Shown: positions 1 through 4,130, counted from the first letter of the stretch. The stretch is 4,130 nucleotides of DNA from a virus (IMGVR_UViG_3300014705_000033); one strand, 5' to 3'. Numbers and translations: made by a program. The notes: generated from the sequence alone by a model not told the origin.

Positions 1-1173
1 GCACTGGCTGCAACCTCCGGCGCAGCGCCCAGTGTCAGAAAGGTGGAACCCAGTGCCGCCGCTTTACGATAATCCAGACGGTCAGCCACACCGCCCAGAC
101 GTTGCATGACATCAATGATGTCCGCCCCTTTCGACATGGCGTTATCATCCAGATAGTTCAGCGCATCGCCGAGCTGTTCAATATTGCGGGTAGGTATTTT
201 GTAGAGCTGGGCGATTTTCCCCAGACTTTCTGACAGTTCATCCGCTGGCAGCTCAAAGGCTGTTGCCGCCTTTGCCGCCGTACTGGCGAAGTCCAGCAGG
301 TCACGTTTCTGGTCTTCCCAGCTGTCGTCAGGGTTTGCGACGTTCATACGCGCACCACCTTCAACCAGTGCAGCGAAGTCCACCGCACCGTTTTCCATCG
401 GCAACTGTTCGCTGGCNNNNNNNNNNCTTGATGGCATCCTGCATTTCATAAAAACGTGCAGTGCGGTTGCCATTATCGTCACGCAGACCATTGACCTGCT
501 TTGCCACACCTTTCATGGCATCTTCCATGCTGGTATAGCTTTTTACTGCCGCCATCACTGGTGTCCCCATTGCCAGCCCTGCAGCCGTGGTGGTGGCTCC
601 GGCTCCTGCAATACGATCACGCACCTCCAGCGAACGGGCATAACTGGCACGCGCCGCATTCATCCTGCGCTGAGCTTCCCCCAGTCGCTTCAGCCGCGCC
701 TCCTGTTTCGACAATTCCTGGTTATAACGCGATGTTTCACGGGCTAAACGGGCAGTTGCTCCCGCATCATCTTTCGCAGAAATTCCCGCCCGATACAGTT
801 CTGCACGCACAAGCGCCGTTTGCTTCTGCAAATATTTTTGTTGTTCTTCCAGGCGTTGGACTGCCAGCGTTTGCCGACCTAAAGCCACAAGGTGCCGTTG
901 TGATGGTTGTTCCATCGCTTCCAGCTCAGAACTAAGCAAATTTGCCTTCTGTCTGGCATAGTTCAGCCTGTCGCCTAACCTTTTGTTATCGGCCTGCAGC
1001 TTGCGAAATTTTTCCAGGCTGTTACCCGCCTGATTGAGTTGCTTTAATGCGTCACGGGAGTTTCTGATTGCGCCAGCCAGCTCTTTCGAACTGGCCTGTG
1101 CAGCACGGAATGGGCGGGTGAGTTTGTCAACCGCATTAAGAATGACCTGCAGGCGCAGGTTATTATCACTCAT
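1..1173 (-). CDS. T: Phage tail tape measure protein (P2 gpT-like), N-terminal part; C-terminus lies beyond the left edge of the window. Interrupted by the N-run at 417-426, with the reading frame changing across the gap.
   Basis: ATG at 1173-1171 opens MSDNNLRLQVILNAVDKLTRP..., followed by a long Q/R/E/L/A-rich segment with coiled-coil character typical of tape measure proteins. Left of the gap a different frame (codons from 416 downward) stays open to position 1 and translates to ...DALNYLDDNAMSKGADIIDVMQRLGGVADRLDYRKAAALGSTFLTLGAAPEVAAS, which I recognise as tape-measure core sequence. Gene order after E/E' matches P2 (FI-FII-E-E'-T). Confidence 0.88.
417..426. other. Assembly gap (10 N) inside the tape measure gene
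   Basis: Run of n characters. The coding frame to its right (codon boundary at 427) and to its left (codon start at 416) differ, so the N-run is a placeholder and not a length-preserving mask. Confidence 0.9.
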
Positions 1174-1602
1174 CGTTGGCCCCGCTTCTCTGAATCGCTT
1201 TATACCGCCATTCCAGCACTTCTGTCAGCGGCATAACGTCAGTAACGGATGGCGGCCAGTGAAAAATGGTGGCGATATCTGCCACCAGATCGTCAACCGT
1301 CAGGCTGTCGGTAAACCGGCAAGCACCGACTTCTTCAACAAAAAAGTGACAACCTCAACCGACATGGCAGTGAGATCTGCCGGGTCCATCTCTGCAATTT
1401 CCTGTGCGGTCAGTGCCGGGCTGGAGATGCGGGGGATCACGGTCATCATCGCGTTCACATCCATATCCATAATGGCCTGCAGGCGCGTACCGCGCAGCGC
1501 ACCGGACTGCGGTTTACGCAGCACAATTTCGGTGATTTCAGTTTTACCACGCTTGATGGGGGTATCCAGTTGAATGGTCTTTTCAGTCTGCTTATCGCTC
1601 AT
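1166..1602 (-). CDS. E': Tail assembly chaperone E+E' fusion made by a programmed -1 ribosomal frameshift (about 145 aa); the E' extension ends at TGA 1168-1166, overlapping the T start codon
   Basis: Slippery heptamer T_TTT_TTG sits in the E zero frame (ACT TTT TTG) at minus-strand 1345->1339. The -1 frame from 1339 is open for 57 codons (VEEVGACRFTDSLTVDDLVADIATIFHWPPSVTDVMPLTEVLEWRYKAIQRSGANDE*). Its stop overlaps the T ATG in the sequence ATGAGTGA. Confidence 0.8.
1300..1602 (-). CDS. E: Phage tail assembly chaperone, P2 gpE-like (zero-frame product, 100 aa)
   Basis: ORF MSDKQTEKTIQLDTPIKRGKTEITEIVLRKPQSGALRGTRLQ...LTAQEIAEMDPADL... resembles P2 gpE in size and pattern. It sits between the tube gene and the tape measure gene. 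A possible AGGA Shine-Dalgarno lies about 8 nt upstream of the ATG. Confidence 0.88.
   Translation of the reverse strand: MSDKQTEKTIQLDTPIKRGKTEITEIVLRKPQSGALRGTRLQAIMDMDVNAMMTVIPRISSPALTAQEIAEMDPADLTAMSVEVVTFLLKKSVLAGLPTA
1339..1345 (-). other. -1 programmed ribosomal frameshift slippery site (TTTTTTG), with a candidate downstream stimulatory hairpin at 1307-1330
   Basis: X_XXY_YYZ heptamer in the correct register of gene E. Eight nucleotides downstream on the mRNA is a perfect 6-bp inverted repeat GUCGGU...ACCGAC with a 12-nt loop (1330->1307). Confidence 0.75.
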
Positions 1603-2144
1603 TTTGCTGTCCTGTAAATTGGGTCCTGGGGCGGGGGTGCGCGCCCCCCCCANNNNNNNNNNAGGTCCACGCCATCAACGATTTCAATCATGTTGATCAC
1701 ATCAACCTCATAGAGCACCTCGCCGTTAATGGTCAGCTTCGCGTAGCTGTTGGTACTGGTCACTTTGGTGGTGTTGCTTTCGCCCGTCTTCCACTCGCCG
1801 GAATCCACTTCTTTGTGACGCCCACGCACGACAAGCTCCACGGCCTGCACTTCCCCGGTATCGTCACGCTGGATAGAGCCGGTAAAGCGCAGTTGGATGC
1901 CATCCACCGTGGATTTGCCCATCTGCTTAAACAGCAGCAGTTCAGTACCACCAATGGAAAATTCTGTGTCCAGAGCACTGTCATCAAGCCCCAGATCCAC
2001 ATCCACCGCCCCCGGCATTCCGCCGCCGCGATACTTCTCATATTTGCGGGTGAATTTCGGCAGCGTCAGCGACTCAACGATCCCCTGCCAGTTGTTCCCG
2101 TCGTTAAACAGGTTCAGGTGTTTTAATTTGCGTGGTAAAGCCAT
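1599..2144 (-). CDS. FII: Phage tail tube protein, P2 gpFII-like. The 3' end is uncertain because the reading frame runs into the N-run at 1653-1662; 1599 is only the ORF-track stop after the gap.
   Basis: ATG at 2144-2142 opens MALPRKLKHLNLFNDGNNWQGIVESLTLPKFTRK..., matching my recall of the P2 FII N-terminus (MALPRKLK.LNLFNDG). A Shine-Dalgarno AAGGGGA overlaps the FI stop, 9 nt from the ATG. About 160 codons are read before the gap, against about 172 aa expected for P2 FII. Confidence 0.85.
   Translation of the reverse strand: MALPRKLKHLNLFNDGNNWQGIVESLTLPKFTRKYEKYRGGGMPGAVDVDLGLDDSALDTEFSIGGTELLLFKQMGKSTVDGIQLRFTGSIQRDDTGEVQAVELVVRGRHKEVDSGEWKTGESNTTKVTSTNSYAKLTINGEVLYEVDVINMIEIVDGVDXXXXWGGRAPPPQDPIYRTAK
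1653..1662. other. Assembly gap (10 N) at the 3' end of FII, next to a G/C homopolymer tract
   Basis: Run of n characters immediately preceded on the plus strand by GGGGCGGGGGTGCGCGCCCCCCCC (1628-1651). Confidence 0.9.
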
Positions 2145-2153
2145 GTTATCCCC

Positions 2154-3323
2154 TTACGCGCTGACCTGGCTGGAGAAATTCACCAGGTACTGATCGGTGA
2201 TGCGCTGACGCAGCATCAGGTTTTCAAGTGGCGGCACTGGCGTGTAGTCGTAGTCGATGGTGAGCTTCCCGGCTTTCAGAGTATCTTTGTCGTTCACCGA
2301 CTCATCCAGCCAGCAATCACCACCAATGAGATAGCCCTGACTGACCAGGCTGCGCATTTTGGCGCGGATACCTTCGATAATGTCGCGGGCCAACGACGGG
2401 TTCAGCGGTTTGTCCACCGCCCACATATGCGCTTCTGCCATTGTGTCCATAAGTACCTGCGCCGTGCGGGTGTAGTTTTCGAAGGCAAAGAGCGGGTCAT
2501 CACTCAGGCAGCGGGAACCCCAGAAGCGGAAACCGTCTTTGCGGATAAGGGTGGTAACGTCGTTCTGGTTCAGCAGTCCCGCATCTGTTGCCGTGTCCTG
2601 CAGATCCCAGAACACATCAGCAGAAATTCCGGTGACACCGTTAACGCCCACGTTGGACAGGCTTTTGTGCCATCCGGTCTGCTCGTCAATTTTAGCGCGC
2701 AGACCAAGCGCACGGGCGGTGGCATAAGCCGTTGCTTCGGCATTCAGCACCGTGTCCCAGCCAGTAAAGTCGGGCCAGATCAGCATTCCTTCACGCTGAC
2801 TGAAGTTTTCACGGTAAGTGATCGCCTCCTGCACTGTCTTGCAGCCATACGCTGACAGGTAAGCAAACCCACGCAGGCTTTGCGCCACGCTCAGCAACTC
2901 AGTCGCAACGGCTTTGTTATCGTGGCCTGGCACGCCGAGAATGCGCGGTTTAACGCCGAGCTGTGACTGGGCAGATAACAGAGCTTTCATGCCTGTTTTT
3001 TTACCTTCATCAGTCACTGCGCCGATGATATTAGTTGTGGTTTCTTCTTCCGTTTCACCCTGCGGCACACGCACAACGGTCACGGGTTTTGCCTGATCAG
3101 CAATTGCATCCAGCGAACGAGCCAGTGTGCCGGACTCGCCCGCCTTACCGCTGGCGGTCAGCACATCGGTCAGCAGGACCGGCTTATTGAGCGGAAACAT
3201 GGACGCATCAGCATCATCGCCGGTGCAGACCATGCCCACGATAGCGGTGCTCACCGTGGTAATGGATCGGGTGCCATCGTTGACTTCAACAACGCGCACC
3301 CCGTGGTGGTAATCCTGGGCCAT
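2154..3323 (-). CDS. FI: Phage contractile tail sheath protein, P2 gpFI-like (about 389 aa)
   Basis: Translation from the internal ATG at 3323-3321 begins [54 protein letters not shown]... and ends ...[24 protein letters not shown]..., co-linear with my recall of P2 FI (MSDYHHGVQVLEINEGTR...). GGAGAG Shine-Dalgarno about 9 nt upstream. The ORF-track start at 3416 adds 31 non-conserved codons and runs over the promoter and terminator region. Confidence 0.93.
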
Positions 3324-3397
3324 AAGGCAGTCTCTCCAATTTACAGGGGGTGTGCCTATGTTCTGGTTAATAAGCGCGCGCCGCACGCGCCGGGCTA

Positions 3398-3415
3398 TGT
3401 GTGGGGAATGACACA
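3398..3415 (-). promoter_or_regulatory. Candidate Ogr/Delta-type late-activator binding dyad (TGT-N12-ACA) of a P_F-like late promoter driving FI-FII-E-T
   Basis: TGTGTGGGGAATGACACA has the TGT-N12-ACA form, centred about 83 nt upstream of the FI ATG. A possible -10 TATTAA lies at minus-strand 3372->3367. The position between G and FI matches the P2 P_F promoter. Confidence 0.45.
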
Positions 3416-3426
3416 ATGGAAAGGAC

Positions 3427-3450
3427 AGAAAAATCCCCGCAGGTGCGGGG
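3427..3450 (-). terminator. Candidate rho-independent terminator downstream of gene G
   Basis: Minus-strand CCCCGCACCTGCGGGG (6-7 bp GC stem, short loop) followed directly by ATTTTTCT, starting 6 nt after the G stop codon. Confidence 0.5.
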
Positions 3451-3456
3451 ACGGGA

Positions 3457-3933
3457 TTAATCTTTGGGCGGCTCAGGCCAGTTAATATCAGGTGCCAGCG
3501 ATGTATCCACCCGCATCAGCAATACGCGGTATTTTCGCCAGGCATCATAGCGGCTCTTTTCTTCGTCTGTTGCCATATCCAGTTCAACAGCATCCTGCAG
3601 CGGAGATATCGCGGTACCTGCTTCGGATAACAACGTAGATCTCCGTAGCTCAGCATCAGCTATTAGATCTGCCGACTTTCGCGTTACGGCTGCATCTGTC
3701 ATAACCCAGGTATTGCCAGCTGCATCCCATGAATGGTATTTATCAGGGCGCGGTTGAGAAATGTTGTATTTATCGGCAACCAGATAAACCACCCGGTCAC
3801 TATTTATTGCATTAAAAAAACGGGCATATTGCTCATTATCTATCGCCTGAACATCTGAGGGTAAATCGTCGACTATTGCGTTTTCCTCATAATTATCATC
3901 GTAGAATGATTGGGTGCTAACTGAAAATCTCAT
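3457..3933 (-). CDS. G: Tail fibre assembly protein / chaperone (P2 gpG-like, Tfa family), 158 aa
   Basis: C-terminus ...[36 protein letters not shown] matches the conserved Tfa C-terminal motif as I recall it. It lies immediately upstream of FI, as gene G does in P2. GAGGG Shine-Dalgarno about 6 nt before the ATG at 3933. Confidence 0.82.
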
Positions 3934-3946
3934 TTAATGCCCTCAT

Positions 3947-4129
3947 TTAATAGCCAATTGCAAGATATGAGCCATTCATCGATGCGTTTGGGGTACGGCA
4001 TTGAAAACCAAAAATCCCATAAGTTTTTGTCTTGCCCAGACTCCATGCCATCTCTTGCTGCCCGACACCACTAACATCAGATGAACCGCCTGTTATCACC
4101 TGGAAAACCGCATTGGGGAAAGCAACTGG
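3947..4129 (-). CDS. Putative C-terminal end of a tail fibre protein (H-like); 5'-truncated by the window edge
   Basis: A minus-strand frame is open from the window edge for 60 codons (...FQVITGGSSDVSGVGQQEMAWSLGKTKTYGIFGFQCRTPNASMNGSYLAIGY*), with its TAA stop at 3949-3947, 13 nt before the G start. Position matches H in the P2 order H-G-FI. I do not recognise the sequence itself. Confidence 0.4.
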   Translation of the reverse strand, partial: PVAFPNAVFQVITGGSSDVSGVGQQEMAWSLGKTKTYGIFGFQCRTPNASMNGSYLAIGY

Positions 4130-4130
4130 C

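Follow-up and report, generated by a model that had tools for sequence, protein, structure and literature searches.

The tail-fibre and tail-fibre assembly (Tfa) genes of phages P2, Mu, P1 and lambda are reportedly mosaic, as Haggard-Ljungquist, Halling and Calendar are said to have described in 1992 (J Bacteriol 174:1462). That fibre and Tfa genes are mosaic, and that fibre tips can be inverted, has been known since the early 1990s, reportedly from the work of Haggard-Ljungquist and co-workers in 1992 and of Sandmeier in 1994. A variable C-terminus of the fibre protein, together with its Tfa, is common to these otherwise unrelated phages, and the locus described here belongs with them in this respect. 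In the invertible host-range segments of phage Mu (G/gin), P1 (C/cin), e14 (P/pin) and p15B (Min), the cassette consists of a fibre tip and a Tfa gene. The variable tip begins at a 26-bp crossover site both in these segments and in the P2-like prophages of Escherichia coli, for which invertible fibre tips have been reported (PMC4272514). The Tfa proteins themselves are described by a two-domain model (North et al., 2019, as summarised in PMC9608196): the non-conserved N-terminal domain binds the fibre tip, while the conserved helical C-terminal domain drives trimerisation or oligomerisation (PMC9608196). This model explains why a tip and an N-terminal domain must move together, and also why the sequence encoding the C-terminal domain is a convenient point for homologous crossover.

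The DNA analyzed here (the window, a stretch of 4,130 nt) is the tail block of the P2-like Klebsiella phage 4LV2017, with every gene on the minus strand. It is 99.9% identical to the record of that phage (NC_047818), whose taxonomy line gives the genus Elveevirus in Peduoviridae. Over 3300-4130 a single base differs from NC_047818, and 12 further phage records are 99.9% identical in this region; the structure of the sequence is also matched by further IMG/VR and metagenome contigs. The tail module is of the P2 (Peduoviridae) type, with the synteny V W J I H G, then FI FII E E+E' T U D ogr. Pfam matches in the window comprise the sheath, the tube and Phage_TAC_7, and the annotation of NC_047818 lists the same gene order. 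The features of the window are as follows.

1173 (start), minus strand: tape-measure gene T
1300-1602, minus strand: gene E, with the -1 frameshift extension E'
about 1626-2144, minus strand: tube gene FII, with a Pfam tube match
2154-3323, minus strand: sheath gene FI, with a Pfam sheath match
3433-3452, minus strand: intrinsic-terminator-like hairpin and T run directly 3' of the G stop, part of the backbone and not of the cassette
3457-3933, minus strand: gene G, encoding a tail-fibre assembly chaperone (Tfa) of 158 aa
3934-3946, minus strand: H-G spacer of 13 nt with a GAGGG ribosome-binding site for G, read from the sequence
3947-4130, minus strand: 3' end of the tail-fibre gene H (last 60 codons and stop), the gene continuing past the end of the window
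about 3660-3960: GC trough (36-46% GC in 150-nt windows), covering the 5' two-thirds of G and the H-G junction

Positions beyond 4130 are given below as extended coordinates; in this region a window coordinate equals the coordinate in the 4LV2017 locus (L001) minus 4015.

As in phage P2, the order V-W-J-I-H-G is followed by a terminator and the FI operon, and the N-terminus of H is conserved (Phage_tail_fib, PF12571). The V-W-J-I-H-G late operon ends at the hairpin at 3433-3452, which is 92-100% conserved in the backbone relatives. Unlike P2, phage 4LV2017 carries a tip of the Gp53-like_C type in place of the P2 H tip, and its 158-aa G has an N-terminal domain found in very few phages and a recombination junction that maps to 27 nt inside the conserved Tfa domain. 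The region from 3596/3622 to 4130, continuing to a crossover site in H, is very probably a host-range cassette exchanged by recombination, composed of the Gp53-like_C tip and the tip-recognising part of G.

The GC content falls from 55.4% over 1-3456 to 40.3% over 3701-3933, with 45.9% for the whole of G. A first-pass annotation of the window had drawn attention to this contrast from hand-counted 60-nt blocks, and its counts are reproduced by computation: 36.7% in 3781-3840, 40.0% in 3841-3900 and 50.0% in 3481-3540. It rightly called FI, FII and T GC-rich, but placed them in the high 50s, whereas T, E, FII and FI all have 54-56.5%, that is, the mid-50s. Its proposal of a compositional change inside G agrees with a single-breakpoint likelihood scan of the window, which gives a change point at 3728 (support interval 3454-3801, LLR 11.9). 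When 30-nt blocks were shuffled 500 times, the highest LLR obtained was 9.2. Composition over the full genes is non-uniform in sliding-window GC as well as in GC3. The drop that it had assigned to 3700-4130 is real, but the trough proper occupies only about 3660-3960, and the fibre tip is mildly low (46% inside the window, 50% over 117 codons, 48-53% in 150-nt windows).

The drop in GC falls at synonymous third codon positions. Codons 1-112 of G have a GC content of 44.0% and a GC3 of 0.375, compared with 0.65 in FI (Fisher p = 4e-7). The H tip is similar to the former, with a GC3 of 0.40 in the part inside the window and 0.42 over the 117-codon tip; intermediate values are observed for G codons 113-158 (0.49) and for H upstream of the tip (0.58). 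The low GC3 shows that the history of the cassette differs from that of the 55% GC backbone. At the same time, low GC characterises the cassette family as a whole and was not left behind by a single event, because it recurs in its relatives. The homologous tip and Tfa N part of the phage RCIP0057 have the same low GC3 (0.38-0.39) and the same gradient, the alternative cassette of the related prophage L004 has 49-50% GC against 57-60% in its backbone, and the fibre and N-domain-homologue genes of the Klebsiella phage KP2025 (about 38% GC) have about 33-39%. Relative to the change point, the recombination junction is displaced by about 100 nt in the 3' direction; since the two do not exactly coincide, the compositional gradient is partly a property of the cassette family. 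Promoter-like sites in the GC trough are no commoner than in shuffled sequence, and a regulatory reading of this AT-rich stretch is therefore unsupported.

The junction divides G into two parts.

3598-3933, minus strand: G codons 1-112, the variable N-terminal domain and the first part of helix 1, the low-GC cassette part
3596-3622: crossover interval of 27 nt, G codons 104-113, encoding the near-invariant Tfa motif ISPLQDAV
3457-3597, minus strand: G codons 113-158 and stop, the conserved Tfa C part, colinear with the phage backbone (92-94% nucleotide identity to L004/L007, 100% to L008)

It was located by three independent comparisons: with a P2-like prophage of E. coli I3, with the metagenome contig L008 and with a prophage lineage represented by L004 and L007. 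The tail-block genes of the I3 prophage are all equal in length to those of 4LV2017, and its backbone identity to the window is 93.8% for FI and 94.9% for the part of H that precedes the crossover site. Identity drops to 34-72% in 50-nt bins over 3450-3599. The last mismatch is at 3595, and from 3596 to 4130 only two mismatches are found in 535 nt (99.6%), with 100% identity over 3596-3933. Contig L008 behaves in the opposite manner, being 100% identical over 3300-3622 and onward into FI, with the first mismatch at 3623 and 80-94% identity thereafter; this 1.9-kb contig, one of the three reference sequences, has an odd layout and could be chimeric. The L004/L007-type prophages, which were found via the protein closest to the C-terminus of G, are 92-94% identical from FI to 3600. 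Their similarity ends at 3601 and is absent from there until the extended coordinate 4866 in H. The informative sites are partitioned accordingly (Fisher p = 6e-29): of the 55 supporting L008, 53 are found no further than 3595, and the 53 supporting I3 all start from 3623 or beyond. The breakpoint that the first-pass annotation proposed to look for in alignments with related prophages is present, but at 3596-3622, not near 3700, and outside the range 3700-4130 given there.

The same division is seen in the protein relatives of G. Among 120 database homologues, those closest to residues 1-112 are the I3 copy (100%) and then a few proteins of 157-161 aa at 70-87%, the variants P0004-P0007 showing 83-87% identity to the N part. 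For residues 113-158 the closest are Tfa proteins of 198-199 aa (87-93%), which carry another N-terminal domain (Caudo_TAP_N) and whose N parts have no similarity to G. The two parts of G accordingly have different closest relatives, which, with the abrupt change of identity at 3595/3596, bears out the module swap proposed from the composition. Three further protein variants of the same make-up (P0004-P0006) argue that L008-type recombinants are real. The near-identity tract continues through the H-G spacer, where the I3 copy is identical to the window, three differences (3934, 3936 and 3945) are seen in the other E. coli prophage, and nine of the 13 bases are common to all four aligned relatives. 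In the tip it is interrupted by a patch of 12 mismatches to I3 at 4162-4238, and the fibre tip is therefore itself mosaic. The identity of 99.6% between a cassette in a Klebsiella phage and one in an E. coli prophage shows a recent cross-genus exchange of host-range determinants, in one direction or the other.

These comparisons bear on two other accounts of the region. In one of them, no exchange took place: G and the H tip were inherited vertically, and low GC resulted from amino-acid or codon constraint, or from faster AT-biased drift in a fast-evolving receptor-binding region. The low GC3 of RCIP0057 and the lower-GC cassette of L004 fit such an account in so far as they make low GC a family trait. 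Yet it would have to accommodate a cassette 99.6% identical to that of an E. coli prophage between flanks at 94%, the sudden change at 3595/3596, two parts of one gene nearest to different protein families, and the unrelated sequence that the backbone relatives L004/L007 hold in the same slot; we consider it highly improbable. To the same small degree one may credit the swap of the whole of G with the tip as a block, with the breakpoint in the G-FI intergenic region and no junction in G, a scenario suggested by a single megablast match to E. coli genomes that covers 3502-4130, nearly all of G. Inside this match, however, identity is 62-72% over 3500-3599 and 100% from 3596, and the last 46 codons match L008 (100%) and L004/L007 (92-94%) instead, without sharing of the N part.

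Having set these accounts aside, we return to the cassette exchanged at a junction inside G, and to the protein in which the junction lies. G belongs to the Tfa family by its match to Pfam Caudo_TAP (PF02413) over residues 47-157 (109.8 bits against a cut-off of 22.1, E = 1.4e-31). Its position is also typical of Tfa, as the H stop at 3947 and the G start at 3933 lie on the same strand with the 13-nt spacer between them. In the AlphaFold2 model of G (pLDDT 94), residues 1-77 form an alpha/beta domain, residues 80-117 a long helix and residues 123-140 another helix. Together with the distribution of its parts, the predicted model assigns G to the two-module Tfa proteins, whose N-terminal domain is variable and whose helical C-terminal domain is conserved. 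The motif ISPLQDAV, encoded by the crossover interval, is the most conserved one in the Tfa family alignment, and the crossover lies within helix 1 of the conserved C-terminal domain and not at the domain boundary. Hence the exchanged unit is the Tfa N-terminal domain plus about 25-33 residues of helix 1.

The Tfa protein U of phage Mu, which has been solved bound to a fibre tip (PDB 5YVQ), provides the closest structural comparison. Residues 91-174 of 5YVQ_B match residues 72-156 of G (E = 3.5e-14), so that the C-terminal regions are homologous; moreover, both genes directly follow a fibre gene, and both proteins combine a variable N-terminal domain with a conserved helical C-terminal one. 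The N-terminal domain of G, by contrast, has no detectable sequence similarity to U. A Foldseek search of the G model against PDB gave no match at E <= 0.001, and the fold of the N-terminal domain is not tied to Mu Tfa by this search. By analogy with Mu Tfa, the N-terminal domain of G would be specific for the H tip.

The C-terminus of H, which the first-pass annotation did not recognise, is a Gp53-like_C domain (Pfam PF21882). In the window, 60 aa of it give 29.0 bits (cut-off 24.9, E = 1.6e-6), and in the full H of 4LV2017 the match extends over residues 386-473 (37 bits, E = 5e-9). The segment in the window is the C-terminal half of the predicted receptor-binding tip, its translation ending in GSYLAIGY before the stop. 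In NC_047818, H is annotated as a P2 gpH-like tail protein. A phmmer search of the tip against PDB sequences yielded noise only, and no solved structure is detectable by sequence in this way.

In all loci examined, the tip and the N-terminal domain of G occur together: every locus with either has both, and the N-terminal domain is encoded directly downstream of the tip. The idea that fibre tip and N-terminal region of the chaperone are exchanged as a unit is in line with this pattern. The linked pair is found in E. coli I3, E. coli CFSAN064036, L008, L052 and the metagenome contigs L067-L070. More distant examples are provided by two Klebsiella phages, in both of which a Gp53-like_C tip is followed by a homologue of the G N-terminal domain. 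The first, RCIP0057, is P2-like and shares the low GC3, but has only 70% identity in the tip and 51% in the Tfa N part; in the 149-kb phage KP2025 the N-domain homologue has about 33%. Among the linked loci the identity of the C part of G varies from 60% to 100%. In KP2025 (L072, 1959-3474) the protein after the Gp53-like_C fibre is an N-domain-like protein of 157 aa (33%) without a Caudo_TAP match, which suggests that the N-terminal domain can be joined to C-terminal modules of another kind.

The two parts of G also differ in their distribution. In a tblastn search of phage genomes, the N part was found in 19 records, all from Klebsiella, six of which show no more than 51% identity. The C part is far more widespread, with 327 records in many genera; lambda Tfa, at 66%, is one of them. 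Close relatives of the N part were absent from genomes representing 185,579 species, and a scan of genome contigs with G gave distant relatives only, all of them matched via the conserved C part. The cassette is present in three of 5,426 complete E. coli genomes. A metagenome search with a pattern joining the invertase half-site to the cassette had no match; a second pattern search returned four contigs.

The same tip (88% nucleotide identity) also ends a short 274-aa fibre in L052 (5163-7397; IMG/VR UViG_2877195390_000002), a non-P2 prophage with a Baseplate_J protein, in which Tfa is truncated, ending with residue 62. Downstream lie another Tfa gene in convergent orientation and an alternative tip, and no invertase reading frame of at least 70 aa was found nearby. 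In E. coli CFSAN064036 (L003, 7151-7977) the cassette copy of a P2-like prophage is 86% identical and in the expressed position; the remnants of a second Tfa and a recombinase pseudogene beside it indicate a decaying invertible switch.

The upstream edge of the cassette is located beyond the end of the window, at a DNA-invertase crossover site in H. This 26-bp site of the Hin/Gin/Cin type reads TTCTCGCATACC TT GGTTTAGGGGAA on the coding strand and occupies the extended coordinates 4307-4332 (L001 8322-8347). Identity to the silent arm of I3 is unbroken over 4239-4320, and the first mismatch, at 4321, directly follows the core AA at 4319-4320; the edge of the cassette thus coincides with the 2-bp core of the site. 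In E. coli I3 the cassette lies on the opposite strand, converging with a second Tfa, beside a serine recombinase (Resolvase and HTH_7 domains), in the layout of a Gin/Cin/Pin-type invertible host-range segment. I3 has two crossover sites with opposed cores; these sites were located by eye and by regular expression, the repeat search having missed them as the half-sites are only partly alike. The 4LV2017 site joins the half-site of I3 H to that of the cassette, exactly the hybrid expected from flipping of the I3 segment. The contigs L068 and L069 have the same layout as I3, and a serine invertase is present in I3, L008, L068 and L069. A literature search on hix, gix and cix sites found nothing.

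Coincidence of the edge with the site core indicates that the cassette of 4LV2017 descends from an invertible switch, not that it belongs to one. A cassette that is still the active arm of a Gin/Cin/Pin-type switch in 4LV2017 itself would account for the crossover-type site in its H and would agree with the role of the same cassette as a silent arm beside a serine invertase in I3, L068 and L069. The phage, however, lacks the remaining parts, and this makes an active switch very unlikely, slightly more so than the two accounts above. A pattern scan finds one site only in 16 kb around the tail genes. No invertase gene lies in the 133-nt gap between G and FI, and none is annotated in the 33.5-kb 4LV2017 record, where the only recombinase is a P2-type integrase. 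G is followed by the terminator and the FI promoter region, and no second Tfa or tip reading frame, and hence no second cassette, is seen on the opposite strand in 4LV2017. Unlike the invertible host-range segments of Mu, P1, e14 and p15B, 4LV2017 therefore has an orphan site and a fixed arrangement: with no invertase, second site or other arm, the former switch arm is locked and the fibre specificity fixed. That the mosaic junction is an artefact of assembly or masking is extremely unlikely, for although the runs of N at 417-426 and 1654-1663 show that the window was processed, they are far from a region that is one base off NC_047818 and whose structure recurs in one metagenome contig, two contigs of IMG/VR and 13 records of phages.

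The origin of the exchanged cassette can then be outlined as follows; how it affects host range, and in which order and direction the exchanges took place, is what we infer from the comparisons. By analogy with described Tfa proteins, the tip would be unable to fold without the matching Tfa N-terminal domain, so that the two would be inherited, and would travel, as one block. The helical C-terminal part of Tfa is generic, and its coding sequence, conserved across many phages, would thereby supply the homology for the downstream crossover, for which the 27-nt ISPLQDAV-coding stretch at 3596-3622 would have been used. The upstream edge of the cassette family is the 2-bp core of the 26-bp invertase site in H. 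In the relatives, the cassette is one arm of an invertible host-range switch, while 4LV2017 lacks the other arm and the invertase, and its fibre is fixed in this specificity. This locus is a well-resolved new example of known phage mosaicism, clear but ordinary, and not a new kind of system.

What it adds is a base-level map of the natural joints of tip and chaperone exchange in a clinically common lineage of Klebsiella prophages, namely, the invertase-site core in H and the ISPLQDAV-coding stretch in Tfa. As these joints reveal the share of the chaperone that travels with the tip (residues 1 to about 104-112), they provide practical splice points for the engineering of P2-type particles or tailocins with new host ranges.

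A wider reading may be drawn from the same observations, although taken as a whole it is doubtful. The orphan site, together with the junction in helix 1 of Tfa, may be the trace of a general route to the fixation of invertase-switch arms in non-invertible phages, one edge arising by site-specific recombination at the fibre site and the other by homologous crossover in the ISPLQDAV stretch. If this route holds, the 27-nt stretch may be a linker at which Tfa genes universally recombine. An intermediate may then be seen in contig L008, where the invertase could delete the DNA between two directly repeated sites and so produce the 4LV2017 layout. Large Klebsiella phages with about 38% GC, KP2025 among them, may be the ultimate source of the low-GC cassette.

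The arrangement of L008 (ENA ERZ22665968, contig k127_23462435) can be described further. A serine invertase gene at 1-341 reads away from the crossover site, and the order is invertase, site, a promoterless copy of the tip, G and FI, with 100% identity to the window from the C-terminus of G into FI. The contig represents a sibling phage that has been rearranged, or else a chimera of the assembly.

Several other features of the window and of the phage were observed. A TGT-N12-ACA dyad (TGTGTGGGGAATGACACA) at 3398-3415 precedes the FI start by about 83 nt and follows the G terminator (3433-3452); it has the form of the activator sites to which Ogr/Delta proteins respond in P2-type late promoters. 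Gene E contains, close to its end, a slippery heptamer T TTT TTG of the canonical -1 type at 1339-1345 (minus strand), and a shift there would yield, as in phage P2, an E+E' product of 145 aa that ends near 1166, just inside the start of T. The GenBank record lists E' as a separate CDS of 120 nt and not as a frameshift product. Runs of ten N at 417-426 in T and at 1654-1663 in FII each break the reading frame of the gene, and the reading frames listed for T and FII are therefore distorted. Across the second run, which is flanked by a very G/C-rich stretch at 1621-1653, the offset to the GenBank record shifts by 3. A search of the window against Rfam gave no match. Outside the window, between the replication and portal genes of 4LV2017 (NC_047818.1, 10905-12888), a pair of genes is annotated as a retron St85 family effector and a "polymerase", presumably a reverse transcriptase; this St85-type pair looks like an anti-phage defence moron.
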